Assembly (NCBI GenBank): GCA_902799385.1
Contig: CADCAK010000001.1
Coordinates: forward strand, 96,566-160,565
Reading direction: 5' to 3'
Length of the DNA: 64,000 nucleotides
Source of the DNA: an uncultured bacterium
Lineage (GTDB): Bacteria; Verrucomicrobiota; Kiritimatiellia; RFP12; UBA1067
A program made the position numbers and the translations under genes. Positions 9,004-61,455 of this stretch are shown in pieces; the first letter of the stretch is position 1, and every line of letters begins with the position of its first letter. Under the pieces are notes generated by a model. That model was not told the origin of the DNA and ran no database searches. It was given only the letters and a program-made list of their open reading frames with translations.

Positions 9004-9057
9004 TGGCTGGTAGTTGGTGGTAAGTAGTTAGTAGTTGGAATTAAAAATTTTGAAATT

Positions 9058-23138: not shown

Positions 23139-23213
23139 ACCGGCGGGGACAAGGCGCCTGTTTTCGGTTGTGCATGATTTTTGGCTTTTATTCAACACGG
23201 ACGCCAAGTTTTA

Positions 23214-23222
23214 TGGTATACT
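23214..23222 (+). promoter_or_regulatory. extended -10 TGGTATACT upstream of rpoD
   Basis: Context AAGTTTTATGGTATACT, 52 nt upstream of ATG 23275. Confidence 0.4.
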
Positions 23223-23274
23223 ATTCCGACCACTTGACAAAGTGCAGTCGGGTGGATTGTATACTGGAGCAACC

Positions 23275-26429: not shown

Positions 26430-27755
26430 ATGTTCAGGCGGATCTCCATCACGAGCTGGAAGTTCCTCCTTGCCGGCAAGGGGATATCGTTCCGCACCGG
26501 CCAGTATTTCGGGGAGTCCATGCTTGTCGGGCTCGTCACCGGGTTCGTAGTCGTGGCGTTCCGCTACATGATAGACTTCGGCGAGTCGCTCCTCATGGGC
26601 GGCTCGTGGCTTTCAGGCCGCCGGTGGGCGATGATGTTCCTTCCCGCGCTTGGCGCGCTCGCGGGACATGCCCTTATAAAGAGGTTCGCGAAGCTCGAGC
26701 ACGCGCGCGGCACCGACAGCGCCATAAAGGCCTACCACCAGCACGGCGGCTACATAACGTCCACCGTGATCCCGATAAAGTCGGTTGCATCCGTCCTTAC
26801 CGTCGGCTCGGGAGGTTCCGCCGGCTACGAGGGCCCCGTGACTCTCATCGGCGCCGCGTGCGGCAGCGCGATCGCGCGGTCTCTCAACCTCACCGTCCGC
26901 GCAAGGCGGATACTGATGGCCGCAGGCCTCGCGGCCGGGATTGCCGCGCTCTTCCAGGCTCCGCTCGCCGGCGCGATCTTCGGCTTTGAGATCTTCTACT
27001 CGTCGAGCGATGTCGAGTACGAGACGGTCCTTCCGTGCTTCATCGCCGCGCCGGTCTCCTATACCATATACGCGTACTTCTTCGGGTGGCAGCCGCTGTT
27101 CGCTATGCCGCCCTGCGCCTACGAGAACGCGCTGAGGCTCCTTCCGTATTTCGCGCTCGCGCTTGTCATAACCTTCGGCGCGCGATTCTACATCAGCTTC
27201 TTCCGCGGCGTCGAGGGGATGTTCTCGAACCTCCGCGCGCCCGGCTTTGCGAAGGTCGTGGCCGGCGGGCTCGTCGTCGGGCTCCTCGGCTACTTCGTGT
27301 TCCCGGGCGTGTACGGCGCGGGCTATCCGATCATCCGCCGCTGCCTCGTCGAGGACGGCAACGCATTCGCGTTCCTCGCGGTATTCTTCCTCAACGTCGT
27401 CTCGACTTCGTTCACCGTCGGCTCGGGCGGCTCGGGCGGAATATTCGCGCCGGCGCTCGTGTGCGGCGCGACTCTTGGCGCGGCCACGGGGACTTTCTTC
27501 GCGCGTGTTTTGCCAGCGTCGTGGGGCGTGCATCCGTCCGCGTTCGCGCTTGTCGGCATGGCGGGTTTCCTCGCGAGCTCCGTGAGAATCCCCATGACAG
27601 CGATAGTGATGGTCGCCGAGATTTCGGGCAATCACCAGTTGCTCGCCCCCGCGATGTGGGTGTGCGGCATAGCGTTCTGGCTTAACAACGGCTGGTCGCT
27701 CTACCGCAGCCAGCCGCACAGTCGCGAGACGTCGCCGGTGCACGTCGGAGAATAA
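26430..27755 (+). CDS. voltage-gated chloride channel (ClC) family protein
   Basis: GSGGSAGYEGP and GSGGSGGIFAPALVCG motifs. Multi-pass hydrophobic protein. Confidence 0.85.
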   Translation: MFRRISITSWKFLLAGKGISFRTGQYFGESMLVGLVTGFVVVAFRYMIDFGESLLMGGSWLSGRRWAMMFLPALGALAGHALIKRFAKLEHARGTDSAIKAYHQHGGYITSTVIPIKSVASVLTVGSGGSAGYEGPVTLIGAACGSAIARSLNLTVRARRILMAAGLAAGIAALFQAPLAGAIFGFEIFYSSSDVEYETVLPCFIAAPVSYTIYAYFFGWQPLFAMPPCAYENALRLLPYFALALVITFGARFYISFFRGVEGMFSNLRAPGFAKVVAGGLVVGLLGYFVFPGVYGAGYPIIRRCLVEDGNAFAFLAVFFLNVVSTSFTVGSGGSGGIFAPALVCGATLGAATGTFFARVLPASWGVHPSAFALVGMAGFLASSVRIPMTAIVMVAEISGNHQLLAPAMWVCGIAFWLNNGWSLYRSQPHSRETSPVHVGE

Positions 27756-27761
27756 AATTCC

Positions 27762-27790
27762 GGGGGAAAAAAAATTTCATTTTCCCCCTT
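27762..27790 (+). terminator. hairpin terminator candidate after the ClC gene
   Basis: Perfect 9-bp stem GGGGGAAAA (27762-27770) / TTTTCCCCC (27780-27788) with a 9-nt loop. Only a short T run follows. Confidence 0.45.
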
Positions 27791-27818
27791 GACGGCGTCA
27801 ACGCGAATATGATACAAT
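27789..27818 (+). promoter_or_regulatory. sigma-70-type promoter: -35 TTGACG, 18-nt spacer, extended -10 TGATACAAT
   Basis: TTGACG at 27789-27794 and TACAAT at 27813-27818, preceded by TGA. Predicted TSS is near 27825. Confidence 0.55.
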
Positions 27819-27824
27819 TCGCAC

Positions 27825-28122
27825 AACCTTTGAGTGAAGAAGGGAAAGTCCTCAGGCGTTAAGCCTGGCACCTAGGTTAAACCAGGTGAAACGAATGTTG
27901 ACTTTTCCGAAGCGCGAGAAGGTGCGGTAATCGGAGATGCGAAACTCAAACCGTCGAAGATTGCTGAATGGCAACACGTGATGCCGACCGTGTTCACGCG
28001 GGTACAAAAAAGTGAAGCGGTATGAAACCACCGCCCACAACGGATCAGCCGGGTAGCTCCGGTCGAAGGGCAAGCGGAAATCCGCAGGTCTGGAGGAACA
28101 AGCCAAAGGAAACAAAACAACA
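27825..28122 (+). promoter_or_regulatory. long (~300 nt) structured 5' leader or unclassified cis-regulatory RNA upstream of the Cys-rich secreted protein gene
   Basis: No credible ORF. Hairpins: 27853-27867, 27869-27888, 27973-27994, 28017-28034, 28049-28062, 28074-28085. CCTTTG at 27827-27832 can pair with CAAAGG at 28104-28109, which overlaps the SD region. Confidence 0.4.
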
Positions 28123-28902
28123 ATGAAGAAGCTCATGATTGCTGCCGCTGCTGCGGCAATGACGGCTGGTGCGTACGCCGGTGCGTGCGACGATGTCGAC
28201 TATACGACCGAGTGGGATGACTGCATGGTCTACGACGTCACGTTCAAGCTCAAGACGCTTGCGCCCAAGAAGCTCGTCTGCAAGTCCTGCGACAGGTGCT
28301 CTGACGATGATGTCGTCTATTACCTCGCCGATGCGTCCCGTACGTTCAACGGCTACCTCTGGTTCTGCTACGAGGAGTGCTGGGATGCCGATGACACGCC
28401 TTACATCGCGCTCTGGGAGAAGAAGACCAGGACGGCCATCATCCCCCTCTACTACACCATCGAGGGCACCAAGAGGGTTGCGTATCCTGTTGAGACCGAG
28501 TTCTCGTTCCTCGGCCGCTACAACAAGAACGCCGACAAGGTCGCCGCGATGTGGGAGTTCGACTCTGCGTATGGCGTGTTCGCCGCCGCAGGTGTCAAGG
28601 GCACCGTCACGAAGGACAAGGAAGCGGGTACGGTCATGCTGAAGTCGATCTCCGGCAATGCGGTCGGCTATCTCGCGATGGAGACGATCGAGGTCGCCAA
28701 GAAGTGCGCCGATCCTGATGAGTTCACGGCCAAGATTGCTGGCCTGTGCGACTGCTGGGATACCTGGTGCGAAGATGGCGATGACGCCGACATCGTTCCG
28801 TTCTCCGGCACCTGGTCGCTCAAGTACAACAAGAGCCTTTCGACTGGTTCCAAGTCGATGCTCCTCGTTGTCCCGAGCTATGCTCAGGAGCTTGAGGTCT
28901 AA
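28123..28902 (+). CDS. Cys-rich small secreted protein, family A (paralog of 36152..36946)
   Basis: Signal peptide MKKLMIAAAAAAMTAGAYA. 11 Cys in CxxC, CxC and CxxxC clusters. Shares VYDVTFKLKT, SGNAVGYL and SGTWSLKYN with the paralog. Confidence 0.75.
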   Translation: MKKLMIAAAAAAMTAGAYAGACDDVDYTTEWDDCMVYDVTFKLKTLAPKKLVCKSCDRCSDDDVVYYLADASRTFNGYLWFCYEECWDADDTPYIALWEKKTRTAIIPLYYTIEGTKRVAYPVETEFSFLGRYNKNADKVAAMWEFDSAYGVFAAAGVKGTVTKDKEAGTVMLKSISGNAVGYLAMETIEVAKKCADPDEFTAKIAGLCDCWDTWCEDGDDADIVPFSGTWSLKYNKSLSTGSKSMLLVVPSYAQELEV

Positions 28903-28935
28903 TGTGCACTGACTGATTCCTAATAGGAATTAGTA

Positions 28936-28980
28936 CAAGGGGGGTGGAAGGAAATAATTTCTTCTAACCCCCTTTGTTTT
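28936..28980 (+). terminator. rho-independent terminator
   Basis: CAAGGGGGG ... CCCCCTTTG stem followed by TTTGTTTT. Lies 34 nt after the stop at 28902. Confidence 0.6.
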
Positions 28981-29003
28981 AGCAATTTACTTTCAAAGAC
29001 GTA

Positions 29004-30167
29004 ATGGATATAAACAGCAGAATTGTCGCAGGTGCATTGGCGCTTCTGGCGTTGTCCGGCTGTGAACGCGCCGACTCGGGCGCTACAGGCGCGGCGGTTA
29101 CGAATGCCCCTATCAAGGTGCAGGGCGCCGCTGTCCCGCAGAAGGGCCAGACTCTCGCGTTGCTGCCGGGTTCTGCTGTGATAGTCAAGGTTGGCGACAT
29201 AGAGATCACGAAGCAAGACTATCGGACGTATTTCAAGATGACCGAGGCTCTCTACAGGAATCGCCATCCGTCATATTCCGAAGAGAAGCTGAAGGCGGCT
29301 GCCGCCAGGCTCAGAATCGCGGCACTTTCGGAGATATTGAGCCGTTCGATGATGAAGGTTGCCTTTGGTGCGGTCAAAGGAGCCGACAAGGAGCTTTTCC
29401 GAAAAGATCTGCAGGACCAGTATGTGAAGACATTCTGCCGCAGAGGGCAGAAGTTTGGCGAGTTGCGCTCTGCCATGGTTGACGCAGATGTCGGCACGTT
29501 TTTCGACAAGTGCTTTGAAGACGATCTCCGCGTCAAGAGCGGAATGTATGCGGCCCATTCAAACGAACTGACTGTGACCGAGGCAGACATGAAGTCTGCA
29601 AGGGATCGCATCGCGACCTACAACGCGCGGGCATCGGCGACGAACGAATTCATTCAGGCAAGGATGGCGAGTGCGCTTAGGCGCATTGCGGCAGGCGAAG
29701 ATTTTTCGAAGTTGGCGCAGGAATATTCCATGGCAAAGGACGAGGGCTGCGACATGGGTGAATGTTGCCTTTCCGATTTTGACGACGAACCCGACGATTA
29801 CAGGACTGCCGTTGCGCAGTTGAAGGCAGGGGAGGTTTCGGACGTGCTGGAAAACGCAGTAGGCTATGATATTCTCAAGGCCGTCAAGTACACGCCGAAG
29901 GACAAGTCGTCAACGGGTGCGCCGACATGGCATATCCAGAAGATTCACTTTGAGAAGCCGTTTTTCTTCGAAGAGCAAACAGACGAGGAACTGAAGAAGG
30001 ATCTTGAGAAGGAGAAGCGTGATGCGCTGCTGGCAGAGATTATGCCCAAGTTGCGCAGCATGGCCAAGGTCGAGTTCCCGTATGGGCGTGAGATATTTCA
30101 AGGGAAAGCCGGCAAGAAGCCCCAACCTGGGCGGAGGCCGTTTCCATTGCCAAATACAACAAAATAG
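29004..30167 (+). CDS. SurA/PrsA-like chaperone lipoprotein with (possibly degenerate) parvulin-type PPIase domain
   Basis: Lipobox-like LALSGC. AGEDFSKLAQEYSMAKDEGCDMGECCLSDF...LKAGEVSDVLENAVGYDILKAV matches the second half of PpiC-type rotamase domains. Confidence 0.6.
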   Translation: MDINSRIVAGALALLALSGCERADSGATGAAVTNAPIKVQGAAVPQKGQTLALLPGSAVIVKVGDIEITKQDYRTYFKMTEALYRNRHPSYSEEKLKAAAARLRIAALSEILSRSMMKVAFGAVKGADKELFRKDLQDQYVKTFCRRGQKFGELRSAMVDADVGTFFDKCFEDDLRVKSGMYAAHSNELTVTEADMKSARDRIATYNARASATNEFIQARMASALRRIAAGEDFSKLAQEYSMAKDEGCDMGECCLSDFDDEPDDYRTAVAQLKAGEVSDVLENAVGYDILKAVKYTPKDKSSTGAPTWHIQKIHFEKPFFFEEQTDEELKKDLEKEKRDALLAEIMPKLRSMAKVEFPYGREIFQGKAGKKPQPGRRPFPLPNTTK

Positions 30168-30179
30168 GAGGTGTTTTAC

Positions 30180-31439
30180 ATGAAAAATATAGGTTATGCA
30201 GTCGTTACCGCCCTTGTGGCTTTTCTTGGGGCTACTTCGTACGGTGCAATAGTGACGGCATCCGACGGCGAGATCGTTCCTGGCGTCTGGAACTCCCGTT
30301 TCGGTGCCGCGAAGCAGTATGCCGACGCCAACCATGTCCCGATGATCGTCTTTTACGGGAAGTCCGACTGCTCGGAGTGTGCGAAGCTCAAGAAGGCGAT
30401 TGAGTCGGATGAGTATATCGCATGGCAGAACGAAAAGCGGTATGTGCAGGTTCTCAGCATCAAGTACTCGGCTCCGGACTGGAGCGATGCAAGGGAGTTC
30501 ATCAAGTCGTCGCCGTTGAATTCCGACAGCCTGCCCATGGTCTGCGTATACTGGAACAAGGAAGACGGCACAGTCATAAGGAAGGCGTTTGTCGGACGCA
30601 GCGGAAGCATGCCTTCGTCAAAGGGAGGCTCGCTCCAGGCCAAGTTCATCGACTCGATCGAGACCATACTTGGCGGCAGCGGCACGCAGGGCGGCGGCGA
30701 CACGCCGACTAAGCCGACCGTGCCGAGCTTCTTCAGCTCTGCAAAGACCATCGCCCTCGCGGCAACCGATGGCGCCGAGTCCTTCGAGGGCCTTGTCCAG
30801 GTGAAGGTCGGAAAGGCCAATTCCAAGACTCACAAGTCCAAGATCTCCGCCAAAGCCCAGCTTCTCGACTTCGGCTCCATGAAATTCTCGACGACCGCAT
30901 TTGACGTGGCGACGACGACGACATTTGTGCTGAACTCCTCGACTGGCGTCTTGACGCTTGAGTTCGACGGTGTCGGCTTTACCGGCACTCTGACGCGGCG
31001 CTCCGGGGTCGCTTTCCAGCTGCTTGGCGACGTGACGTTTGGTGGAGCCATGCCGACGGCAACGAGCAAGTTCTCCCTCCTCGAACCCCCGCAGGAATAC
31101 AGGGGCCGCGATATCTTCACCGAATGGCTGCCGACAGCCCAGGAATTCTCCACTGGAGCGAGGTGGTCGCTGCAAAAGAAGGGTTCGGTCAAATACAACA
31201 GGCGTACGGGCGAATTCGAGAATTCCGCCGCCGATACGAACGCAAGCGGGCTCAAGCTGTCCTACACATCGAGCTCGGGTTACTTCAAGGGCTCCTTCCT
31301 TGTCTATTACAAGGCGTCGGCAACCAAGGCGAGCAAGGTTACAGCCAAGGTCGTCGGGTATGTCGTCGACGGGGTTGGATACGGTACTGCTACAATCCCT
31401 TCGCTGGGAACGTATGACGTGCAGATAACCGCGCCATGA
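30180..31439 (+). CDS. secreted thioredoxin-fold (CSEC) protein with beta-rich repeats and shared C-terminal module
   Basis: AGGAGG SD then ATG 30180, with a signal peptide. MIVFYGKSDCSECAKLKK, with CxxC at 30369-30380. C-terminus SGLKLSYTSSSGYFKGSFLVYY..VDGVGYGTATI is shared with 37771..40335. Confidence 0.7.
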   Translation: MKNIGYAVVTALVAFLGATSYGAIVTASDGEIVPGVWNSRFGAAKQYADANHVPMIVFYGKSDCSECAKLKKAIESDEYIAWQNEKRYVQVLSIKYSAPDWSDAREFIKSSPLNSDSLPMVCVYWNKEDGTVIRKAFVGRSGSMPSSKGGSLQAKFIDSIETILGGSGTQGGGDTPTKPTVPSFFSSAKTIALAATDGAESFEGLVQVKVGKANSKTHKSKISAKAQLLDFGSMKFSTTAFDVATTTTFVLNSSTGVLTLEFDGVGFTGTLTRRSGVAFQLLGDVTFGGAMPTATSKFSLLEPPQEYRGRDIFTEWLPTAQEFSTGARWSLQKKGSVKYNRRTGEFENSAADTNASGLKLSYTSSSGYFKGSFLVYYKASATKASKVTAKVVGYVVDGVGYGTATIPSLGTYDVQITAP

Positions 31440-33217
31440 TGAGAAGACATGTCGCCATATCCCTGATGATTGCATTTGCTGCCGTGGTTCCCGCGGCGGC
31501 AGATGCATTCTTGGGACTTGACGGCAATGTCGGCAATCAGGCCAGTTGGAAGGAATCGTATTTCATTGCCATCGACCCGATTCACTTCTGCATGAGGCAG
31601 CCGGACGGCGCTACGCGGATTTTCCAGCGGGACATCGCCGAGCCGCATGTGCTTTTGGGCGATTCGCCGTGGGTCGGCGAGATTGACGGGGACCGGGTGC
31701 TGATTATGACCGATCCAAAGTCTGCGGCGACGAGGGTCGGTTTTCTCTTCGTCAAGGGCCGGTTGCAGCGCATGCTGCACGGCGATAGGGATATCGAAGT
31801 CCGCGGCAAGTCGGGAGAGATTGACGCAAGGCCCATGGGGACTTACTGGCCGGACGTCAGTTCCGACGCCGTTGCCGCCGCGAACGAGCGCTATGGAATC
31901 CACTGGCGCGACAGGTTCAAGCTGTGGTACAGGAATCCGAATGCGGCCGGCATGCTGCTCGCCGAGTTGGCGCTGCTGTCGTTGGCGTTGATGACGCTGC
32001 GTCGTGCGGGCATGAGGCCGTTGGGGGCGGCGGCATTTCTCATGTGCGCGTTTGGCGTGGCCTGCACTGAGTCGCGCAGCGCCATGCTTGGCCTGCTTTT
32101 TGGGCTCGCATGCATGCTTGCCGTTCATGCTCGGCAGGTGGTCAGCCGCCGGAATGCCGCAATCGCCGCGGTCTTGTGCGTGGTGTTTGCCCTGGCGGTC
32201 TGGATGGGCGGCTTCGCCGACCGATTCACGACCAAGTTGCTTGCCGAAGGGCAGTCCAGCGTAAGCAGGCTGCCAATTTGGGCCGAGGTGCCGAGGATGA
32301 TTGCTGCGGCTCCCTTTGGGTGGGGCATTGGACAGTCTGGCCTAGCGTACATGAACTGGTTTCAGCCTCTGGACCGCGGCCACGCCGTCCTCGGGTTGAT
32401 CAGCACTCATCTGACCTGGCTGGCGGAACTGGGCTGGCCAATGCGCATTGCCTACATGTTTGCCTGGTTCTCCGGCCTTTTGCTGCTGGCTTTCAGCGGC
32501 TTTCGGCGGAAGAACGCCCTGCCGCTCGCGGTCTGGGGCGCTTTTTTCGTTGCGAGCTGCTTCAACACGATCGGCACCGAGATTTCCCTTTGGATAATTC
32601 CGGTTGCCTTGCTGTCCGTTCCGGTTGCGGAGCGTTGCTGGCGGTATCGAAAGTCGTTCTTGGGCGCACTTGCCGCCGGCGCTGTGATTACGGCGGCATT
32701 GTCGGTGGCGCTGACCTGCCTTGGAAGCCGGTCGGACTTTACGATTCGCCGTGAAGGGCGTGGCGTTGTCATCAACGGCGACCATGCGTCCACCTGGGTG
32801 GTGGACGATGGCTATGTGCTAAGCGGGGGGTATTACGGACTTCTTGGCAAGGGCATTCGCGAATGGTTCTTGCGGCATCGCTCGGCTCCGGCGCTTGGCG
32901 TCGTCCAGCGGTTGGAAGACGTTCCGGCCTCGGCGACGCGCGTCGTCGTCGTCGGCAGGGCGGGTGTCTCGCTGCTTGAGAAGCGCGCAGACTTTCTCAA
33001 GGGGCATGGAAACGTGACGAAGGTTATATTCCTTTCGCCGCCATTTGGCTTTGAGGCCTGTGCGGATCTTGCCTGCGGGAACGTCGAAGTGGGGTTTGTG
33101 ACGGGAGAGTTCGCCAACCGCGTGTACGATGGCGGCGCGAAGTCGTGTCCAGAATGGGTCGATGTCGTCCCTGGATGCGCCCTTTATGTCCCAAATTGGC
33201 TTAGGTATGTTTTCTAA
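31436..33217 (+). CDS. Wzy_C (O-antigen ligase / O-oligosaccharyltransferase-like) membrane protein with extra N- and C-terminal soluble domains
   Basis: NPNAAGMLLAELALLSL, TESRSAMLGLLFGLA, SRLPIWAEVPRMIAAAPFGWGIGQSG and STHLTWLAELGW are typical Wzy_C motifs. ATGA overlap with the upstream gene. Confidence 0.6.
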   Translation: MMRRHVAISLMIAFAAVVPAAADAFLGLDGNVGNQASWKESYFIAIDPIHFCMRQPDGATRIFQRDIAEPHVLLGDSPWVGEIDGDRVLIMTDPKSAATRVGFLFVKGRLQRMLHGDRDIEVRGKSGEIDARPMGTYWPDVSSDAVAAANERYGIHWRDRFKLWYRNPNAAGMLLAELALLSLALMTLRRAGMRPLGAAAFLMCAFGVACTESRSAMLGLLFGLACMLAVHARQVVSRRNAAIAAVLCVVFALAVWMGGFADRFTTKLLAEGQSSVSRLPIWAEVPRMIAAAPFGWGIGQSGLAYMNWFQPLDRGHAVLGLISTHLTWLAELGWPMRIAYMFAWFSGLLLLAFSGFRRKNALPLAVWGAFFVASCFNTIGTEISLWIIPVALLSVPVAERCWRYRKSFLGALAAGAVITAALSVALTCLGSRSDFTIRREGRGVVINGDHASTWVVDDGYVLSGGYYGLLGKGIREWFLRHRSAPALGVVQRLEDVPASATRVVVVGRAGVSLLEKRADFLKGHGNVTKVIFLSPPFGFEACADLACGNVEVGFVTGEFANRVYDGGAKSCPEWVDVVPGCALYVPNWLRYVF

Positions 33218-33226
33218 CCAACAAGA

Positions 33227-35104
33227 ATGGAGGTAGATATGGCTACAACCGATAGGACCAAAGCGGAGGGAATCAACGGGCGGAAGTATGCGCTAGTGCT
33301 TCTGTGCGGGGCGTTTTCCGCCTGCGTGTCGTTTGCGTTCGAGTATGACGTGAGACGGCCGTCAGACGACTTGAAGCCGACTTTCCATGCCGCCGACACG
33401 AAGCCCGGGGCATGGACGCTGGCGGTAGACGACGCAATATCAAAGGCGAAGGCAGATGGCAAATACACTATCTTGATGAATACGGCGTCATGGTGGTGCC
33501 CGTATTGCGAGACGGCCGAGGAGCTGGTGCTTACGTCCAACATGTGGAAGTCCTATGTCGCGGCGCACGGCTTTTACCTTGCGGTCATGGATTTCCCGTA
33601 TCGCGGTCACGTCGGCGACGACCAGGTGTGGAAGAGCTGGCATCCCGAGCTGGGCGATGGATGGGGGTTCAAGTGCTGGCTGATGGATCCGGACTATCTG
33701 GCCGAGATCGGCCTTTCGGCCGATGAAGGCCTCGCGGCCATCATGTCGCTCTACGAGCATCAGGCCGACTACGCACTCCCGACCGGAGACCTCATCACCA
33801 TAAAGCGCTGGGATACGCAGGAGGACTTCTCCTACCACAAGCTGGGATACCTGACGCTGATTGTCATCGGTCCGGACGGCGTCGAGGCCGGGCGCGTCGG
33901 CTTCCCGTGGTGGAACACGAATTCGGTTACCCAGAGGGAGGCCCAGGAATACGTGATCCAGGCGATCGAGCGCATCATTGCCGGCGAATGCGAAATCTGC
34001 CAGGACGAAACGCCTTCGGTTGTCGATGTTTCCAAGGCGCACAAGTACAACGGCTGGATGCTTGACTCCGAGGGCGTCATGTCTGGCTCGATCGAGATAT
34101 CGACGAGCAAGTACAACGGCAGCGCGAAGAGCGTAAAGGCCCGCGTCAAGGCGGTGCTTGGCGGCAAGGCGGTCTCGTTCCCGACGGTCGAGGTCCCGGT
34201 TTCGGGCTGCATCGTGTGCGGGGACGAATCGGAGATCGAGACGGTCGAGGTCTCAAAAGACGGCTACCGTGGTTCGGTCCACATCGGGACAGACGGCCTT
34301 TCGGGCAGTTTCTGGCACGGGGACACGGCATATACGGTTAAGGGCGGATGCAATCTGTTCAGGGAGAAAGACGCCCATGCGAAAGCTCTTTTGGCGACAA
34401 GTCCGGTCGGCGTATGGAGCCTTGTTCTCAAGAACGCCGAAAAAGACGGCTTGTCCCCTTTCTCAAGGGGCATGGGTGCAATATCCATGGACGTAAGGCG
34501 AACCGGCGTTGCCAAGTTCACCGGCACGATGGGCGACGGCACTAGGGTCTCGTGCTCGTCGCAGGTCATACTCGGAAGCAACGGCATCGCATGCGTGCCG
34601 TTTGCCGCACGGCTCTACAACAAGAAGGGCGGCTTAAGCTTTGTGGTATGGTTCAAGGACGGCGAGCTACTGAGCGTGGAATCCGTCTCCAAATGGGTCG
34701 CTGCCGGAAAGAATCCCTTCGAGGTTGCGGTTGCCGTCCAGAACACCATGTCCGTCGGCATCGGCGTGGTGCCGGACGAGATGGACTTTACCATCGACGA
34801 CTTCCCTGCCGAAATCGGCGGAATGCCGTTGGTCGGGGACCAGTCTGCCGATGTTGTCAAGGCGAGCGGCAAGAGGTGGTTCGGCTCGGAGTTGACCGGC
34901 TTCAAGGCAACGGTTGCGGGACGCACGGGATTTTTGAACGGCAGCATGACATTCTTGGTCAGGAAGGATTCCGGCGAAGTCAGGCCGGTGAGAGGCACCT
35001 TCAAGGGCATTGTCATGGGCGGGGCCGGCTATGGGACCGTGATTGTACAGAATGTCGGCACATGGGCGGTCAAGATCGCCGCGTGCGGTTCCTGCAACGA
35101 CTAG
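33227..35104 (+). CDS. secreted thioredoxin-fold (CPYC) protein with beta-rich repeats and related C-terminal module
   Basis: ILMNTASWWCPYCETAEEL, with CPYC at 33497-33508. C-terminus GFKATV..GSMTFLV..GGAGYGTVIV. Alternative start ATG 33239 sits behind GGAGG. Confidence 0.7.
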   Translation: MEVDMATTDRTKAEGINGRKYALVLLCGAFSACVSFAFEYDVRRPSDDLKPTFHAADTKPGAWTLAVDDAISKAKADGKYTILMNTASWWCPYCETAEELVLTSNMWKSYVAAHGFYLAVMDFPYRGHVGDDQVWKSWHPELGDGWGFKCWLMDPDYLAEIGLSADEGLAAIMSLYEHQADYALPTGDLITIKRWDTQEDFSYHKLGYLTLIVIGPDGVEAGRVGFPWWNTNSVTQREAQEYVIQAIERIIAGECEICQDETPSVVDVSKAHKYNGWMLDSEGVMSGSIEISTSKYNGSAKSVKARVKAVLGGKAVSFPTVEVPVSGCIVCGDESEIETVEVSKDGYRGSVHIGTDGLSGSFWHGDTAYTVKGGCNLFREKDAHAKALLATSPVGVWSLVLKNAEKDGLSPFSRGMGAISMDVRRTGVAKFTGTMGDGTRVSCSSQVILGSNGIACVPFAARLYNKKGGLSFVVWFKDGELLSVESVSKWVAAGKNPFEVAVAVQNTMSVGIGVVPDEMDFTIDDFPAEIGGMPLVGDQSADVVKASGKRWFGSELTGFKATVAGRTGFLNGSMTFLVRKDSGEVRPVRGTFKGIVMGGAGYGTVIVQNVGTWAVKIAACGSCND

Positions 35105-35132
35105 CTTGGGCTCCGTATAGGCAACACGGCAT

Positions 35133-36095
35133 ATGCAAAAGAAGGCAATATCCATCGGCTTGGCGCTGTTCGCGTCGTTCGTGCTCGTAGTGGTGCTGGT
35201 GTTCGTGCAGGGCGGCGGCAGGCAGCAGTCGCCCGACTCGGGTGGCCAGGATAGCAAGGCGGGCGCCGTGTCTCGTCGCCGCGGCGCGAGTCCCCGGCCT
35301 GAAAGCCGCGCAAAAGGGTCTGACGAGCGTCAAGGGGCCAAGAAGAAGGCCCGTAGGCCCATGCCGCAAATTGTCTTTGACGATCCGGATCATCCATACT
35401 CCGCAGCGGACAAGCGCATTGCGCGCGAACTTCAGGACGCGTTGGACAACTGTACGGCAGACACCGCGGACGATGAGTCGGATGAGGGCGACGGCATATT
35501 CTCCAAGAAGCAGTCCGACGCGCAGAGCAAGTTGATGAAGGCTGCATCTGCGGCCGCCGCCTCGGACAATCCCTCCGTCAGGCTGAGGGCTGTGGAAGCG
35601 TATTCGTGGATAGGGAAGGATGCGCTTCCGGAAGTGACCGTGATGATGGCGGACTCGGACGAGAATGTCGCCGAACAGGCCATCGAGGCCGTCGGGCAGT
35701 CCCTTCTGGACATTGACGACTCCAACGACCGCTTCCAACTCGCAACGACGTACATGAGCACATTCTCCTCGAACGAGAACGCGCTTTCCATGCTTGGCGG
35801 GATTTCGTCCGGAGCGGCGCTTGCGCTGATGGAGCCGGCGAGCGACAGTCCGGCGGATGTCGCGGTTGCGCTTGAAAACAGGCAGTTTTTCGTAGATACT
35901 GTCAGTGCGCTCGTCGAAGGCGGCCAGGGGAAATGCAGCGAGCACGCGCAGTCGCTCTACGAAGAGGTCACCGGTTCGCCGTGGATAGATGCCGACGAGG
36001 GCGAGCGCTGGGCTACGAATCCAGACGGTTACGAGGCGCCGGAGACTCCGGAACCGCAAGATGTGCAATCTGAGCAAGGCGAGCCGAGAGGCTGA
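35133..36095 (+). CDS. N-terminally membrane-anchored HEAT-repeat-like protein, family H (paralog of 36952..37749)
   Basis: TM segment ISIGLALFASFVLVVVLVFV followed by a basic linker. NPSVRLRAVEAYSWIGKDALPEVTVMMADSDENVAEQAIEAVG is HEAT-like. Confidence 0.65.
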   Translation: MQKKAISIGLALFASFVLVVVLVFVQGGGRQQSPDSGGQDSKAGAVSRRRGASPRPESRAKGSDERQGAKKKARRPMPQIVFDDPDHPYSAADKRIARELQDALDNCTADTADDESDEGDGIFSKKQSDAQSKLMKAASAAAASDNPSVRLRAVEAYSWIGKDALPEVTVMMADSDENVAEQAIEAVGQSLLDIDDSNDRFQLATTYMSTFSSNENALSMLGGISSGAALALMEPASDSPADVAVALENRQFFVDTVSALVEGGQGKCSEHAQSLYEEVTGSPWIDADEGERWATNPDGYEAPETPEPQDVQSEQGEPRG

Positions 36096-36151
36096 GCGCC
36101 GCGAGGAAGGGTTTCATTCATCCAAAAAATAAAACGAAAGGAAAACGAAAA

Positions 36152-36946
36152 ATGAAAAAGCTCATTATTGTTGCTGCAATGGCGTTTGCGGGCGGCGCCG
36201 CCCTTGCGGATGCGCAGGTGTATGAAATGCAGCTGACCTTGAAGACCACGGTTTCAAGGTCGGGGCAGGTCAAGTTCGTCGCCTGCGACTGTCCGGTCGA
36301 CGGTAGCACCCTCTACCGTAGCCAGGGGACCGTGAAGATCAAGGGACTGATCTGGGGCTGCGACTGCGTTACGCTGTCGGATCCAGACATATCATCCGAG
36401 GCGTCGAGTCTGGCCAAGTCGTCGTATGGCTACATCTTTTGGAACGAGACTACCAGGAAGCCCATGAATCTCAAGTTCAAGTGGGAGCTTCTCAATCGAA
36501 TCGACAGGACGGGACAGAAGGCGGAAGGCACCTGGACGCTCTCTTCCGACGACGGGACGTTCTACATCATGGGCTCGGGTTTCGGCTCCGTAAAGGATAC
36601 GGTCGTTACCAAGCCCGTATGCGAGAGGACCGCGACATGGGTGCCTAGCATGAGCGGCAACCTCGCCGGCTGGTCCACGCCTGGCGCAATCGTGACTGTC
36701 CAGGCGACGGCCGGGGAGTGCTCGTGGTGCGAGAAGGTCGAAGGCTCCGAAGAGCAGACGGCTTCGGCGAAAGGCTGGACATTGTGCGAGTGCGGCGATT
36801 CCGACGAGCGTACTGCGGCGAGCGGGACATGGAAGCTGAAGTACAACGCAAAGGCGGCCAAGATCCTCTCCGACAAGTCCAAGGCTGTTGAGTCCGTCAC
36901 GCAGGCGTATTCCTTCCCGTCGTACGTTAAAAGCGTGATCGAATAG
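36152..36946 (+). CDS. Cys-rich small secreted protein, family A (paralog of 28123..28902)
   Basis: Signal peptide. 9 Cys (CDC, CDC, CSWC, CEC). VYEMQLTLKT, SGNLAGWS and SGTWKLKYN are shared with the paralog. Confidence 0.75.
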   Translation: MKKLIIVAAMAFAGGAALADAQVYEMQLTLKTTVSRSGQVKFVACDCPVDGSTLYRSQGTVKIKGLIWGCDCVTLSDPDISSEASSLAKSSYGYIFWNETTRKPMNLKFKWELLNRIDRTGQKAEGTWTLSSDDGTFYIMGSGFGSVKDTVVTKPVCERTATWVPSMSGNLAGWSTPGAIVTVQATAGECSWCEKVEGSEEQTASAKGWTLCECGDSDERTAASGTWKLKYNAKAAKILSDKSKAVESVTQAYSFPSYVKSVIE

Positions 36947-36951
36947 TCATT

Positions 36952-37749
36952 TTGTCGTTTGACGGCACAAGGACGCGACTATTGCTTTCGCAAGGCAGAA
37001 CAAGGGTCATCGCGCTGTCGTCGGCCGCAGTGGCCGCCGCCGCAGTAGTTCTTGTCTGCCTTGTGCGGACTTTCGGCAGGGAGCCGGCCGTTGCGGAATC
37101 GCGCGGGGAGCGCAGTCCAAGCGTTCCCCCGCGCCGTTCCAATGCCCAGTCCAAGCCAAGGTCTTCGCGTCCGAAGCCCGTATTGTCGGTCTGCGCGGTT
37201 GACGACGACGAGGACGACGGTCGCACGCCCGCCGAAAGGGCGCTTGCCGAACGTATCGACAAGGCGCTCGAAGACGAAGACTTCGGATTGGCAGCTTCTT
37301 GCGTCGACGAGGCGCAGAAATGCAGCGTCATCGAGATTCGCCAGGCCATGGTCGAGACGCTTGGCTGGTTTGGCGAGAAGGCCCTTCCCGAACTGATCCC
37401 GTTCCTTGCCGATGCAGACGGGAATGTCCGCGAGAGCGCGATGAACGAATGGACTATGGCGCTCTCGTCCGTGGAGAACGACGAGGAGAAGATTGGCCTC
37501 GTCGAGCAAGTCATGGGAGTTCTGCGCGATGAGGATGCGCTGGAAGAAATGTCCGGCGAATATATAGGTGTAGACGAGAAGATGGCCGTAGAGTCGCTTA
37601 TGCGCATTATTGCGTCCGGGGGATCGGCAGAAGGTATCGCAAAAGCCAAGGAGACATATGAATTCGTGACGGGTAACGAGTGGGTCGGCTTTGAAGAGGC
37701 GGATCGCTGGATTAAAGAGGAATATGCGCCGTCTGAAACTATGCCGTGA
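36952..37749 (+). CDS. membrane-anchored HEAT-repeat-like protein, family H
   Basis: IEIRQAMVETLGWFGEKALPELIPFLADADGNVRESAMNEW. The tail EFVTGNEWVGFEEADRWIKEEYAPSE parallels 35133..36095. TTG start is uncertain. Confidence 0.6.
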   Translation: MSFDGTRTRLLLSQGRTRVIALSSAAVAAAAVVLVCLVRTFGREPAVAESRGERSPSVPPRRSNAQSKPRSSRPKPVLSVCAVDDDEDDGRTPAERALAERIDKALEDEDFGLAASCVDEAQKCSVIEIRQAMVETLGWFGEKALPELIPFLADADGNVRESAMNEWTMALSSVENDEEKIGLVEQVMGVLRDEDALEEMSGEYIGVDEKMAVESLMRIIASGGSAEGIAKAKETYEFVTGNEWVGFEEADRWIKEEYAPSETMP

Positions 37750-37755
37750 AAGCAA

Positions 37756-37765
37756 GGGGGGGGGG
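37756..37765 (+). repeat. homopolymeric G10 tract 5 nt upstream of the C10 peptidase start codon
   Basis: Counted directly: AAGGGGGGGGGGCAATCATG. Confidence 0.95.
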
Positions 37766-37770
37766 CAATC

Positions 37771-40335
37771 ATGGACAAGGGCAAGATCGTCGTTGCGGCA
37801 ATTGCTGCTTCATTTTTATGCGGGTCGGCTTGGTCTGCGGAGGTAAGTTCCGCCCAGGCGGAGACCTTTGCCAATGTATGGTCTTCCGTACGTGCGCGAA
37901 GGATGCCCGGCGAGTGCCGAGAAAGACGCAGGGTGTCCCTTCGTACAATTTGCACCAAGTCCGACAGGCCGCTCTTCCATGTCGCCAATCTGCCCGAGGG
38001 TGGCTTTGTCGTGATGTCGGGCGACACGGCCCTAAGTCCGGTTGTCGCATACTCCGACGTGGGGGCATTTGTGGAGATGGAGGGGAATCCGGTCTATGAG
38101 GCCCTTTTGGCCGATATGTCCGCCCGCATTGCGGCTGTTGATTCGTCGAATCGCCAAACGGCGAAATGGCCAAATGTAGAAAGGATTGCCAAGGCGAAGG
38201 CCATGGCGTCGATAGGGGAGGACGGGCTGGATGGCGTCAGCGACATAAGGGTCGCGCCAATCACCAAGGCGAAATGGTCGCAGCTCACTTTGGGAGGCCG
38301 GAATGCATTCAACATGTATACTCCCAACAACTATTCCTGTGGATGTGTGGCTGCGGCGTTTCTGGCGGTCATGCGCCATTGGTGTGAACCGCGCGGCCCC
38401 GTCGCGCAGTCGATGATGGTGTGCTGGATAGACGGCGTGAGGACGTCGCTTCAGATGATGGGCGGGACCTACGATTGGGCGTCAATGCCATTGGAGTGGT
38501 CGAATGAAGTTACCGATGTCCAGCTCCGGGAAATAGGCAGGGCGGCGTATGATGTGAGCTTGGCCATGCACACGAGCTATTACCAGTCTGGGTCGCAATC
38601 ATGCGGCGAGCTGGGTGCCCAAGCGCTTGCCACTGGATTTGGCTATGCCTCAGTCCGCGTGTACGATACCATAAATGCGGCGTTGGCATCGAAGAACTTG
38701 ATCGACTCGGAAAACTACCGGAATGCCATTCTAGCCAGTCTTGATGCTGGCATGCCGGTTGTTGTCGGCGTGCAGAACGAGTCGGTAGGCCATCAGCTCG
38801 TAATCGACGGCTACGGATTCAGCGCCGGCAATGTGTTGTTCTGTCACCTGAACTGCGGATGGGGAGGGATGTGCGACTTGTGGTACAACGTGATGGCCGG
38901 CGGCGTCATAGACCCATACTGGTTTACGGTAGTCGAAGACGTCGTCTACAACATACATCCAAGGGTTTCCGGCGACGTTATATCGGGACGGGTGCTCGAT
39001 GATAACGGCGTCCCGGTGCCAGGGGTGTCCGTGAAGCTCTCAAAGGGAGATTCGTCGGAAGCGACGACGACGACGGACGCAAAGGGGATCTTCTCTTTCA
39101 GGTTTAGCGGGAAGGGTACATTTACGCTGGAGGCCGCCGATCCTACACTTGGCAGCGCGAAGCGCAGGGTCGTTATTGGGGCAGAAGGCAAGGATCCGGA
39201 ATTCGAGTTTGATGATCTAACCAACAGCAGTTGGCTGTATTCCGACGGTGTCGTCGCCAATCGCTGGGGGCAGGATCTCGTGCTAACCCCCCCGGAGGAC
39301 GGCGGAGACGACTCTTTCGACGAGCAGCCGTTTGATGCCGCAAACGCCGGTGTGTTCGATGGATGCATACTGGCCGATACGGAGATAAAGGGAACCATCC
39401 AAGTCAAGGCTGGCAAGGCAAAAAACGGGGAAAGCAAGGTTACGGCTACGGTAATTCTGGCAGACAGTCCTAAGAAGCTCAGTTTCAAGGGCGTTTTGCG
39501 CACGGACACGGGCTTTGCAACACTTTCCTGTGCGCGCGAAGAGGACATGTCGATTTATCTTGGCAAGGCGCGTTTTTCAGGCGAGATGGCAAATGGGTTT
39601 AGGGTGTCCGGAGTCCGCAATCTCTTCCTTTCGAAGGACAAGGCTGAGGTTAATGCCGCAGAGGGCGTCTTGGCGCCAAAGATCGGCACTCTCAACGTCG
39701 TCGGCGATAATCTTGTCATGGCCGTGAGCATCGGCAAGAAGGGCAAGGTCAAAGTGTCCGGCACATATCGTGGCGTAAAGGTTTCCGCCTCGGTTCAGGC
39801 ATATGTCGGCGATGGCGGATCCGTGCTTGTGCCTGTCGTTGTATCCAAGAAGGGCTCGCTTGCGTTTTTGCTCACTGTAGGCGATTCAACCGCCTCGATT
39901 GCCGGTTTAGGCGACGATATAAAAGTCGGGAAGCAGGGAAGATTGCAATCAGGCGCGGTGTTGCAGCTTCCCGACGGTGCGTTTGCGTCCATATCCGGAC
40001 TTCTTGTCGATTTGTTGCCTGACAACGAGCCGCTGACCGTATCTAATGGCAAGTGGGATACGGCCAAGGCCGCCAAAGTCACGTATAAGAACGGTGTGCT
40101 TGAGATAACGCCGGCGGTCAAGGGGGGAAATGTCGAGAATCCGTCGGGCCTCAAGTTGTCCTACAAGGCCAAGGACGGCTCTTTCAAGGGGTCGTTCAAG
40201 GTTTATGCGGTTGCTTCCGGCAAGTTGCAGAAGTACACTGCAAACGTTGCCGGCGTGCTTGTGGACGGCATAGGCTACGGCACTGCGGAAATCAAGAAGG
40301 TTGCCTCTTGCCCAGTCGTGATATCGGAGCCCTGA
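37771..40335 (+). CDS. secreted C10-family (streptopain-like) cysteine peptidase with Spi-like propeptide, CarboxypepD_reg-like domain, beta-rich repeats and shared C-terminal module
   Basis: KAKWSQL..YTPNNYSCGCVAAAFLAVMRHW, with the catalytic Cys codon at 38344-38346. His motif VGHQLVIDGYGF. LNCGWGG. GRVLDDNGVPVPGVSVKLS. C-terminus SGLKLSYKAKDGSFKGSFKVY..VDGIGYGTAEI. Confidence 0.85.
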   Translation: MDKGKIVVAAIAASFLCGSAWSAEVSSAQAETFANVWSSVRARRMPGECRERRRVSLRTICTKSDRPLFHVANLPEGGFVVMSGDTALSPVVAYSDVGAFVEMEGNPVYEALLADMSARIAAVDSSNRQTAKWPNVERIAKAKAMASIGEDGLDGVSDIRVAPITKAKWSQLTLGGRNAFNMYTPNNYSCGCVAAAFLAVMRHWCEPRGPVAQSMMVCWIDGVRTSLQMMGGTYDWASMPLEWSNEVTDVQLREIGRAAYDVSLAMHTSYYQSGSQSCGELGAQALATGFGYASVRVYDTINAALASKNLIDSENYRNAILASLDAGMPVVVGVQNESVGHQLVIDGYGFSAGNVLFCHLNCGWGGMCDLWYNVMAGGVIDPYWFTVVEDVVYNIHPRVSGDVISGRVLDDNGVPVPGVSVKLSKGDSSEATTTTDAKGIFSFRFSGKGTFTLEAADPTLGSAKRRVVIGAEGKDPEFEFDDLTNSSWLYSDGVVANRWGQDLVLTPPEDGGDDSFDEQPFDAANAGVFDGCILADTEIKGTIQVKAGKAKNGESKVTATVILADSPKKLSFKGVLRTDTGFATLSCAREEDMSIYLGKARFSGEMANGFRVSGVRNLFLSKDKAEVNAAEGVLAPKIGTLNVVGDNLVMAVSIGKKGKVKVSGTYRGVKVSASVQAYVGDGGSVLVPVVVSKKGSLAFLLTVGDSTASIAGLGDDIKVGKQGRLQSGAVLQLPDGAFASISGLLVDLLPDNEPLTVSNGKWDTAKAAKVTYKNGVLEITPAVKGGNVENPSGLKLSYKAKDGSFKGSFKVYAVASGKLQKYTANVAGVLVDGIGYGTAEIKKVASCPVVISEP

Positions 40336-58038: not shown

Positions 58039-58099
58039 GGCCCTTGCCTCGGCAGGATACTTATCATGGATTTCCTGGCATTCGCCATGCCGCCGAAAA

Positions 58100-58108
58100 T
58101 GGTATAAT
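58100..58108 (+). promoter_or_regulatory. extended -10 TGGTATAAT ending 10 nt before the gltX ATG
   Basis: AAAATGGTATAATATCCACCACTATG. No SD. Confidence 0.5.
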
Positions 58109-58118
58109 ATCCACCACT

Positions 58119-59489: not shown

Positions 59490-59533
59490 CAGTTGACTTG
59501 ATTGTCTAAAGGTTGCCAGTTGTGGCGCATTGT

Positions 59534-61410: not shown

Positions 61411-61455
61411 CGTTCTACTTGGGCGGTAGATAAAGTATAAGAGGACACGCTAAGT

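Follow-up and report, generated by a model that had tools for sequence, protein, structure and literature searches.

Positions 27789–49028 of a 64,000-nt stretch of DNA from an uncultured Kiritimatiellia bacterium (contig CADCAK010000001.1; the whole stretch is called the window here) hold one co-oriented unit, which runs from a strong promoter through nine genes for exported proteins into a WbaP/Wzm/Wzt/glycosyltransferase set. It is larger than the region flagged by an initial annotation (27762–40335), which took in the nine genes. These flagged genes are a real cassette that is conserved in many gut and rumen Kiritimatiellia and has not previously been described. Its conserved core consists of a secreted cysteine-rich protein (family A), a peptidyl-prolyl isomerase (PPIase) and a thioredoxin protein (Trx), with a Wzy_C-family membrane protein and HEAT-like proteins (H) as frequent additions. 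Gene content, paralogy, synteny, folds, RNA covariation and the inverted-repeat and recombinase architecture of one related locus (L015) are established here. In our judgement the chances are about even that the unit is a lineage-specific envelope locus, one that serves to express a variable surface-coat protein, fold it oxidatively and possibly glycosylate it. Kiritimatiellia are common in rumen and gut communities but hardly any have been cultured, and to our knowledge nothing is known of their cell surface.

A conserved cassette around a cysteine-rich protein

All nine flagged open reading frames (ORFs) were confirmed; they run in the same direction on the + strand, separated by gaps of −4 to 101 nt, and hydropathy and inspection by eye place an N-terminal hydrophobic segment on each product, as the initial annotation had it. 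The array opens with A1 (28123–28902, +), a secreted all-β protein of family A with 11 Cys and the near-invariant signal peptide MKKLMIAAAAAAM. A second paralogue, A2 (36152–36946, +), has 9 Cys and no leader of its own; all-against-all blastp aligns the two at 26–28% identity over ~245 aa (E 1e-10 to 4e-11), which upholds the proposed paralogy. An indexed search with A1 returned 99 homologue clusters, none of them with a Pfam domain or an informative name, and an exhaustive profile search (E ≤ 1e-3) extended the family to at least 565 representative clusters at 50% identity. Except for one contig binned as Anaerovoracaceae, the organism-labelled genomic matches are Kiritimatiellia or 'Verrucomicrobia' metagenome-assembled genomes (MAGs) from rumen, gut or faeces. 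Almost no variation is seen across the family in the signal peptide, MKKLM(I)AAAAAAM, and the mature parts drop to ~30% identity. Family members carry 9–14 Cys, seven of them at invariant or nearly invariant positions.

The AF2 model of A1 (pLDDT 85, pTM 0.80) is compact and all-β, with hairpin strands of up to 19 residues. Its own promoter and terminator, flank-like codons, invariant signal peptide, conserved Cys and compact all-β model suggest that A is an abundant exported structural protein. Family A, with neither an annotation nor a structural relative, is a candidate major surface antigen. A literature search on Kiritimatiellia surface or Cys-rich proteins found nothing relevant.

Window proteins were searched against the ORFs of 30 loci found via A, and further loci were found via a leader motif; all come from Kiritimatiellia MAGs and metagenomes, and L-numbers label individual loci. 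The order A–PPIase–thioredoxin protein is kept in nearly all of more than 40 loci. The PPIase gene lies directly downstream of the A gene in nearly all related loci, and a Trx1-type gene completes the order in nearly all of the ~30 loci found through A. These Trx1-type proteins range from 400 to 1500 aa with a variable tail, and the long thioredoxin proteins carry Thioredoxin_7 and Calx-beta-like regions. Outside the core, about a dozen loci have Wzy_C, about fifteen have H and about eight have Trx2 (orthologues in L001, L008, L009, L010 and L015 among them); an A2-type gene occurs as second A gene in four (L010, L015, L020 and L021). Several cassettes can occur in one genome: L011 and L012 belong to the same MAG, and L015 holds two side by side.

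The same order is found in loci retrieved independently by the leader motif, including those headed by a divergent second Cys-rich subfamily. These proteins (~260 aa, 12–14 Cys) share promoter, leader and signal peptide with A and end in a C.C.D...GGTWK motif similar to that of family A, and the A profile barely finds them (E 1e-3 to 1e-7). Their genes (L081, 2751–3533; also L077, L065, L049, L043, L083, L093 and L062) are followed by the same PPIase–Trx–Wzy_C genes, arranged in L081 as A′–PPIase–Trx–Trx–Wzy_C. The co-occurrence of families that the initial annotation anticipated thus holds for the core and often for Wzy_C and H; the C10 peptidase of the window is found in only two or three other cassettes. 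Its proposal of a dedicated extracytoplasmic maturation or surface-display unit gains from this conserved co-occurrence, which matches the component set of no characterised system, and loses the core role given to C10; the function itself we infer. None of the outcomes that it had named as refuting was observed.

Immediately after A1 comes a PrsA/SurA-like parvulin PPIase (29004–30167, +), correctly recognised at the outset as a lipoprotein: its Rotamase domain (PF00639) scores 38.9 bits against a cut-off of 21.7, and the lipobox reads LALSGC. Among solved structures it comes closest to PrsA foldases and matches SurA less well, and its SurA_N_3 score of 19.8 bits is under the cut-off. As it reaches no equivalog cut-off in NCBIfam, the protein is a family member rather than an orthologue of a named PrsA or SurA. 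Trx1 (30171–31439, +) is a secreted protein with a thioredoxin fold and the motif CSEC at 30369–30380, fused to a C-terminal domain (CTD, residues ~197–422). Trx2 (33227–35104, +), an anchored or secreted thioredoxin-like protein, has CPYC at 33497–33508 and a long CTD (residues ~275–619). Both motifs lie exactly where they had been placed. The AF2 model of Trx1 (pLDDT 87.7) upholds its fold, with Foldseek TM-scores of the N-domain of 0.5–0.69 to thioredoxins, AGR2/ERp18 and DsbD-gamma, and Trx1 orthologues carry PF13899. Trx2 is tentatively assigned as thioredoxin-like from weak Thioredoxin_7 and weak DsbH matches, the latter reaching 32.5 bits with an equivalog cut-off of 190.

Three cassettes also contain MauE-like membrane proteins with a CGC motif (L004 16644–17102, L020 8235–8702 and L026 12927–13403), which could be membrane redox partners for the thioredoxin proteins. 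Rotamase and PrsA similarity, the thioredoxin fold with CxxC motifs and these MauE-like proteins argue for a role as folding helpers. This would be a private oxidative-folding set in a lineage from anoxic gut habitats.

Foldseek finds no real match for A1 in PDB or BFVD (TM ≤ 0.23), and its weak matches are almost all β-barrels (PsbO, FadL, OprG, OmpA and porins). Together with the very long β-hairpins of the model, the weak SurA_N_3 and SurA similarity of the PPIase and the weak DsbH match of Trx2, they favour a different picture, in which A is a major outer-membrane (OM) β-barrel of porin or OmpA type, the PPIase a SurA-type chaperone, and the thioredoxin proteins cross-link a Cys-rich OM complex as in the related phylum Chlamydiae. 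ompA is likewise monocistronic and strongly promoted with a long leader. We think this unlikely, since TM-scores of 0.23 or less amount to no structural match, the sequence of A is highly charged and lacks similarity to OM protein (OMP) families, and its conserved last strand GTWSLKYN is followed by ~25 residues instead of forming a C-terminal aromatic β-signal. The chlamydial complex itself (MOMP/OmcA/OmcB with Dsb), also from the PVC superphylum, likewise pairs Cys-rich envelope proteins, which are abundant there, with periplasmic thiol-disulfide oxidoreductases. A nevertheless has neither sequence nor fold similarity to MOMP or Omc proteins, Trx2 stays far below the DsbH cut-off, and the chlamydial genes are not known to form a cassette of this kind.

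Promoter, leader RNA and promoter inversion

The first gene had been credited with its own strong promoter, a leader of ~300 nt and its own terminator, and all three are present. The sigma-70-type promoter (27789–27818, +; TTGACG-18-TACAAT) has an extended −10 element, TATGATACAAT, and gives 10/12 matches plus the TG extension in a scan. In 13 other loci a CCCCCTTG(A/C)..TATGnTAcAAT promoter stands at a fixed distance from the leader motif CCTAGG, 48–54 nt as compared with 58 in the window. Downstream of A1 lies a terminator-like double hairpin (28915–28985, +; −38.2 kcal/mol, z −6.5), with UUUGUUUU after its second stem. It probably reduces transcription into the genes that follow; a simple terminator scan missed it because the stem is long and imperfect. 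On the other side of the promoter, a G5A8...U4C5 hairpin (27762–27788) abuts the −35 box and is probably the terminator of the ClC gene. In most related loci, too, a T/A-rich tract and then CCCCC stand ahead of the −35 box, and this element may be part of a conserved promoter context.

The leader of the A1 mRNA (27825–28122, +; ~298 nt) is structured, as covariation and a covariance-model (CM) match indicate; this covarying structure had escaped the initial annotation. It comprises a 5′ domain (27825–27924, +) with hairpins at 27853–27867 and 27869–27888, and a 3′ domain (27960–28103, +) predicted to fold into multiple hairpins, after which the ribosome-binding site AAAGGAAAC (28105–28113, +) is predicted to be unpaired. 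Between loci the leaders are 73–82% identical over 200–290 nt, and the A proteins of these loci are ~30–38% identical. RNAalifold of eight long-class leaders gives 60 pairs in 12 helices, 24 of the pairs with compensatory changes. In this structure 95% of cells are paired, compared with 31–47% when the partners are slid; the 24 covarying pairs compare with 5–9 in slid controls, and none of 500 shuffles reaches the observed values on four of five measures. The 3′ domain, with 23 sequences, behaves alike (92.9% paired versus 29–44% slid; 12 covarying pairs versus 4–7). The window copy itself supplies several compensatory changes in two 5′ hairpins (CAGGC/GCCUG, versus CGGAC/GUCCG elsewhere), and its minimum free energy has a z-score of −3.45.

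A CM of the 5′ domain has a single match in the window, at 27825–27924, and 38 matches in 36 of the 98 sources searched; each of the 37 checked is followed by an MKKLM-like gene start 140–298 nt downstream. No second leader match, for instance ahead of A2, and no extra copy of A or CTD was found elsewhere in the window by profile and CM searches. Two leader classes occur, a long one of ~293–298 nt, to which the window belongs, and a short one of ~155–220 nt with a different 3′ domain. Rfam gives no gathering-score match in the window and none at E ≤ 1 in 27700–28200; the consensus-like leader of L010 has one chance-level match (E 3.9). The leader is a structured RNA outside Rfam and was previously undescribed.

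Long structured 5′ untranslated regions are also found on the ompA mRNA and on the slpA mRNAs of Lactobacillus and Thermus. The A1 leader shares with them a strong promoter, a hairpin-rich 5′ domain ~20–28 nt into the transcript and a monocistronic exported-protein gene; it differs in being much larger, with 12 helices, and in belonging to no Rfam family. Set beside these and riboswitch-type leaders, it also has no intrinsic terminator, and its near-invariant single-stranded junctions are more typical of ligand- or protein-binding RNAs. The near-invariance of these junction nucleotides suggests more than a stabilising hairpin, and a large covarying leader of this kind could be a new regulatory RNA class. 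A small ORF within the leader was rejected, as the frames of the mini-ORFs differ between the window and other loci because of a 1-nt indel. An internal terminator or antiterminator was rejected as well, there being no + strand stem followed by a U-tract. By eye, a CCUUUG near the 5′ end is complementary to the Shine–Dalgarno sequence (CAAAGG) in the window and in L010, in an information-poor part of the alignment; an on/off switch by such pairing is speculation.

In six related loci (L004/5, L010, L015, L016, L028 and L047), the gene immediately ahead of the A promoter encodes a tyrosine recombinase. L015 has a 1393-nt segment from which two cassettes diverge; inside it lie the recombinase gene (8453–9562, −), the sole promoter and the first ~24 nt of the leader. 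On either side of the segment stands one copy of an inverted repeat, 215 nt long and 100% identical, that constitutes the rest of the leader (L015 8121–8335 and 9729–9943). The repeat continues at 82–92% identity into the signal-peptide codons, and the identity boundary lies at the first leader hairpin (CGGACATTGTGTCCG). Read from its sequence, this layout would let one promoter serve either cassette, which makes it a candidate promoter-flipping switch whose inverted repeats are the leader itself. Comparable repeats were not found at the orthologous recombinases of L004, L010, L016, L028 or L047, and the opposite orientation of the L015 segment was not observed. L053, in which a cassette-2-type gene is joined to the promoter-proximal end of the leader, was considered as that orientation and rejected; at only 79% identity it comes from a different organism and is no proof of inversion.

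A comparable arrangement is known from BT1927 of Bacteroides thetaiotaomicron, a phase-variable surface layer of a gut symbiont under an invertible promoter (PMC4611039), and from other surface loci with invertible promoters. L015 resembles it in combining a recombinase with a sole promoter between long inverted repeats that face alternative cassettes. The repeats of L015 are 215 nt of transcribed leader rather than short inverted repeats, the proteins are unrelated, and the window has neither recombinase nor inverted repeats. The recombinases upstream of the A promoter in six loci and the L015 repeat nonetheless point to variability of the surface protein among the relatives.

Glycan genes and a shared C-terminal module

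The co-oriented array does not stop at the C10 peptidase gene, where the initial annotation ended it, but continues into a glycan operon that the annotation omitted. Only 17 nt after C10 begins the gene for a WbaP-type polyprenyl-phosphate hexose-1-phosphate transferase (40353–41840, +), the initiating enzyme (PF02397, 214 bits; TIGR03025, 346.8 bits against a cut-off of 295.55). It is followed by the ABC-2 polysaccharide exporter Wzm (41862–42629, +; PF01061) and by Wzt (42580–43527, +; PF00005), whose ORF overlaps that of Wzm. Two glycosyltransferases assigned from Pfam complete the set: a GT8–GT2 protein (43524–46481, +) with a tail of 12.4 repeats of 21 aa, and a GT2–GT4 protein (46491–49028, +), at which both the array and the compositional deviation end. 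All these genes are contiguous, with gaps of at most 21 nt or overlaps. Within the GT8–GT2 gene, a 63-nt tandem repeat (45497–46276; 12.4 copies, 80% matches) encodes the ATVEKVKAGRDDALRMRDEAL-like 21-aa units, which form a long tail on a two-domain glycosyltransferase. We presume that this tail may be a coiled-coil 'ruler', like the chain-length setters of ABC-dependent O-antigen systems.

The cassette's link to these genes would be its Wzy_C-family membrane protein (31436–33217, +; PF04932, 45.9 bits against a cut-off of 31.7). Canonical Wzy_C and WaaL proteins are membrane-only, with ~12 transmembrane (TM) segments in ~400 aa. The window protein departs from that layout, as its initial description as atypical implied: it has 593 aa, ~8 TM segments and extra soluble domains at the N terminus (~140 aa) and C terminus (~165 aa). 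Across 12 orthologues R263, R278, H325 and R337 of the external loop are near-invariant, and the extra soluble domains are also conserved. It has no PDB sequence match, and its sequence does not separate a protein O-oligosaccharyltransferase (O-OTase) from a lipid A-core ligase or a polymerase. The two HEAT-like proteins, H1 (35133–36095, +), with an N-terminal TM anchor, a basic linker and a PBS-type HEAT-like helical domain, and H2 (36952–37749, +), also membrane-anchored, are paralogues as proposed (24% identity over 229 aa, E ~4e-13 to 8e-13, all-against-all blastp). HEAT_2 is matched by 18 of 18 family members, and the family profile matches alphaRep/HEAT structures.

Polysaccharide genes adjoin the A cassette in the window and in L001/2, L004, L007, L013, L016, L023 and L055. 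Four cassettes that lack Wzy_C contain instead a small PMT_2-like protein with WbaP nearby (L004 11840–12559, L007 2559–3302, L013 9314–10051 and L055 4471–5217). No cassette has both, and the PMT_2-like protein would stand in for the putative glycan transferase, each excluding the other. A glycan link is suggested by the contiguity with WbaP, Wzm, Wzt and the glycosyltransferases, the Wzy_C/PMT_2 exclusivity, the paired Wzy_C genes of L015, the Arg and His residues of the loop and a resemblance to the slg loci of Gram-positive bacteria.

In Geobacillus stearothermophilus and Paenibacillus alvei, slg loci place a structural gene beside a tightly packed operon of lower G+C content that encodes WbaP-type initiation, Wzm/Wzt, multidomain glycosyltransferases, a Wzy_C O-OTase and a helical-repeat helper (PMC2943079). 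The window likewise has a WbaP-type initiator, Wzm/Wzt and glycosyltransferases in one operon, together with a Wzy_C-domain protein, lower G+C, an adjacent candidate structural gene and helical-repeat proteins. It differs in that its host, a PVC bacterium, is diderm, A resembles no S-layer protein, the helper repeat is HEAT-like where that of slg is a tetratricopeptide repeat (TPR), and Wzy_C has extra soluble domains. Genes for a PPIase and thioredoxin proteins of their own are absent from slg loci, as are a common C-terminal module and a leader RNA of this kind. The resemblance would concern how the locus probably works and not membership, homology being limited to generic enzyme families. 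If the glycan link is true, S-layer glycoprotein biogenesis of Gram-positive bacteria would have in this unit a counterpart from a diderm PVC bacterium. A phase-variable surface architecture of Bacteroides type would then be known from a further gut phylum, which would matter for interactions with phages and the host immune system.

The same glycan genes could also be read as an ordinary polysaccharide locus, in which Wzy_C is a WaaL-type ligase or a polymerase and the secreted proteins upstream are functionally unrelated neighbours with nothing in common but a low-GC 'surface variation' region. A complete ABC-transporter-dependent toolkit lies directly downstream, the lower GC and deviant codons that span both parts are typical of O-antigen loci, and many A cassettes lack Wzy_C. 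Yet about a dozen loci have Wzy_C within the A cassette, flanked by Trx genes, and several of them (L015, L020, L021 and L081) have no WbaP, Wzm or Wzt within the available sequence. L015 carries two Wzy_C genes, one per A cassette, the order A–PPIase–Trx is kept irrespective of glycan genes, and the topology of Wzy_C with its extra soluble domains is atypical. We rate this reading as improbable, on a par with an OM β-barrel.

Less probable still is an effector role, in which secreted A would act, for instance, as a lectin, nutrient-binding protein, toxin or bacteriocin, would need private foldases for its disulfide-rich fold and would have no structural part in the surface. A is small, Cys-rich, secreted and fast-evolving, it comes with dedicated PPIase and thioredoxin genes, and no lattice or anchoring motif is recognisable in it. 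The association with Wzy_C, PMT_2 and glycan genes would be unexpected for a toxin, however, no immunity-like or export-specific neighbour gene is conserved, and a promoter-inversion layout between alternative cassettes is typical of surface structures (PMC4611039).

The initial annotation missed the CTD, a lineage-specific all-β module that forms the homologous C-terminal part of Trx1, Trx2 and the C10 peptidase (profile matches of 4e-87, 1.3e-36 and 4.3e-57, respectively). It starts near G.IQVKVGKANKKG..KVSAT and ends near NPSGLKLSYKAKDGSFKGSFKVY...V.GV.VDGVGYG.A at the protein C terminus. A profile search finds at least 218 protein clusters. Many are stand-alone proteins of 315–350 aa; others join the CTD to Listeria-Bacteroides repeats (PF09479, Flg_new), BspA-type leucine-rich repeats (PF13306, LRR_5), BACON, CARDB, He_PIG, C10 peptidase, reprolysin-like or Thioredoxin_7 heads. 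In Trx1, Trx2 and C10 the module has no Pfam or NCBIfam match at E ≤ 0.1, and it matches no model of known sorting signals (T9SS CTD, PEP-CTERM, LPXTG or autotransporter β-domain). Foldseek gives only weak matches (probability ≤ 0.33), to uncharacterised Bacteroides lipoproteins, YmcC-like proteins, nitrobindin and LolA3.

To recur in conserved form behind many unrelated exported heads is characteristic of domains for sorting or surface retention, and the CTD may be such a domain. It would then be a candidate for lineage-wide sorting or anchoring of proteases, adhesin-like repeats and redox enzymes. The presence of one C-terminal module on many unrelated heads likens it to the T9SS CTD with A-LPS attachment, PEP-CTERM and SLH, as does its genetic linkage in the window to a Wzy_C/WbaP glycan pathway and a cysteine protease. 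It differs in its length of ~230–330 aa, in matching no Pfam or NCBIfam model and in occurring also as a stand-alone protein; known C-terminal sorting domains have roughly 25–90 aa. Homology between family A and the CTD was rejected: a profile–profile comparison with the Trx1 and CTD alignment gave a probability of 1.5% and aligned only the first four residues, at the start of the signal peptide, so the likeness of SGTW.LKYN and SGLKLSYK is not evidence of homology.

The C10 (streptopain-family) peptidase (37771–40335, +) has an I69 propeptide, a CarboxypepD_reg domain and a long CTD (residues ~531–853). Peptidase_C10 (PF01640, 99.6 bits), Inhibitor_I69 (PF13734, 42.1 bits) and CarboxypepD_reg (48.6 bits) all exceed their Pfam cut-offs, which bears out the initial call of a C10 peptidase with propeptide. 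The protein aligns to interpain A and streptopain over the motifs GCVA and GH..VIDGY, which we take to hold the catalytic Cys and His. Its architecture of head and CTD also occurs in P0247 and P0251. C10 does not look like the zymogen-type maturase at the core of the system that had been proposed; on the CTD-sorting reading it looks like one of many CTD-bearing cargoes.

Under the envelope-locus reading, the job of the unit would be to make an abundant, fast-evolving, disulfide-rich secreted β-protein, A, and to deliver it mature to the cell surface. The conserved promoter and ~298-nt leader would drive and tune a monocistronic A1 message, the leader acting most likely on mRNA stability or translation, or as a ligand- or protein-binding site, and a leaky terminator would pass a fraction of transcription into the helper genes. 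After Sec export, the PrsA-like PPIase and the CxxC proteins would fold A and form or shuffle its ~4–5 disulfides, with the thioredoxin proteins and C10 held at the same surface by the CTD. In the most speculative step, Wzy_C, helped by the HEAT-like proteins, would transfer an undecaprenyl-linked glycan, made by WbaP and the glycosyltransferases and exported by Wzm/Wzt, to an acceptor that is most plausibly A or its coat, as in slg loci. In relatives the cassette may be phase- or antigen-variable, as the sequence architecture of L015 alone suggests.

A more far-reaching version joins all of these parts. It supposes an as yet unrecognised type of diderm coat, made of interchangeable disulfide-locked β-proteins with a new fold, a CTD that acts as the lineage's general sorting or anchoring domain, and a new class of cis-RNA, riboswitch-like or protein-binding, whose DNA doubles as the substrate of promoter flipping between alternative coats; we consider this conjunction doubtful, if less so than any of the rival explanations. 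We give the same tentative standing to its account of maturation, by which A is matured by the private PPIase and thioredoxin proteins and joined to an ABC-exported glycan by Wzy_C or the PMT_2-like protein, and the CTD of ~230–330 aa serves dozens of adhesins and enzymes.

Several points weigh against an envelope locus. The surface site and abundance of A, the substrate relations, the transfer of glycan to protein and the role of the leader are what we infer from the features above. Family A belongs to no Pfam family and shows no similarity to known S-layer, pilin or OMP families in Pfam, NCBIfam and Foldseek searches. Two of the initial domain assignments fall short in the window itself: Thioredoxin_7 scores 22.6 and 14.4 bits against a cut-off of 27, leaving the fold upheld by structure for Trx1, and HEAT_2 stays below its Pfam cut-off in the H proteins, leaving that assignment to the family as a whole. 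With basic residues on both sides of their anchor, the H proteins could be oriented either way. The sample of neighbourhoods is biased, since the loci were retrieved through A or the leader. More than half of the cassettes lack Wzy_C, and glycan transfer can therefore not be essential to the core; Wzy_C might also be no more than the ligase for O-antigen in the ABC-dependent glycan pathway next to it. Finally, an invertible promoter in the window was considered and rejected, as the window has no recombinase homologue and inverted repeats around its promoter are at chance level.

Composition and surroundings of the unit

The flagged genes had been described as a lower-GC accessory island. Composition does differ from the flanks, with a GC content of 0.55–0.60 across 28 to ~48 kb against 0.62–0.66 and a third-position GC (GC3) of 0.66–0.80 inside the unit against 0.81–0.89. 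The boundary at 40335 does not hold, as the shift spans ~29–49 kb, both secreted-protein and polysaccharide genes, and reaches ~49028. By synonymous-codon likelihood, the genes from the PPIase through the last glycosyltransferase deviate from a flank model with z of −1.6 to −4.6; A1 is the exception within the unit, with flank-like codons (z −0.2). Surface-polysaccharide loci are often compositionally distinct.

These shifts, and the housekeeping rpoD and ClC genes immediately upstream, would also suit a recently acquired mobile island without collective function. We hold this to be very improbable, the least likely of the explanations considered. The window contains no integrase, transposase or other recombinase homologue, no tRNA and no flanking direct or other repeats, so the unit is compositionally distinct and not a recognisable mobile element, contrary to what 'island' might imply. 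The cassette is also conserved across many Kiritimatiellia genomes with a divergence like that of vertical inheritance, and the codons of A1 are host-typical.

Upstream of the unit lie genes for an alpha-2-macroglobulin, rpoD, an RRM protein, DJ-1 and ClC. The bacterial alpha-2-macroglobulin (18612–23138; 1508 aa, with MG2, bMG3/5/6/10 and bait-region domains) stands just upstream of rpoD. The longest rpoD ORF (22990–25362; 790 aa) uses a TTG start and overlaps the end of the alpha-2-macroglobulin gene, and it has a very long N-terminal region ahead of sigma-70 region 1.1.

Two further stretches of the window have a low GC content. The first, at 1–2200, has a GC content of 0.48, compared with ~0.62 for the rest, and a strong positive GC skew. 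It contains a 310-aa ORF without assigned function (36–968), then ~1.2 kb lacking a convincing ORF, has no Rfam or tRNA match and precedes a 942-aa ORF (2227–5055). The second, at 58000–62000 (GC 0.53–0.57), contains the ORFs 57519–59489, 60040–61410 and 61456–62652, with a GC3 of 0.61–0.67.

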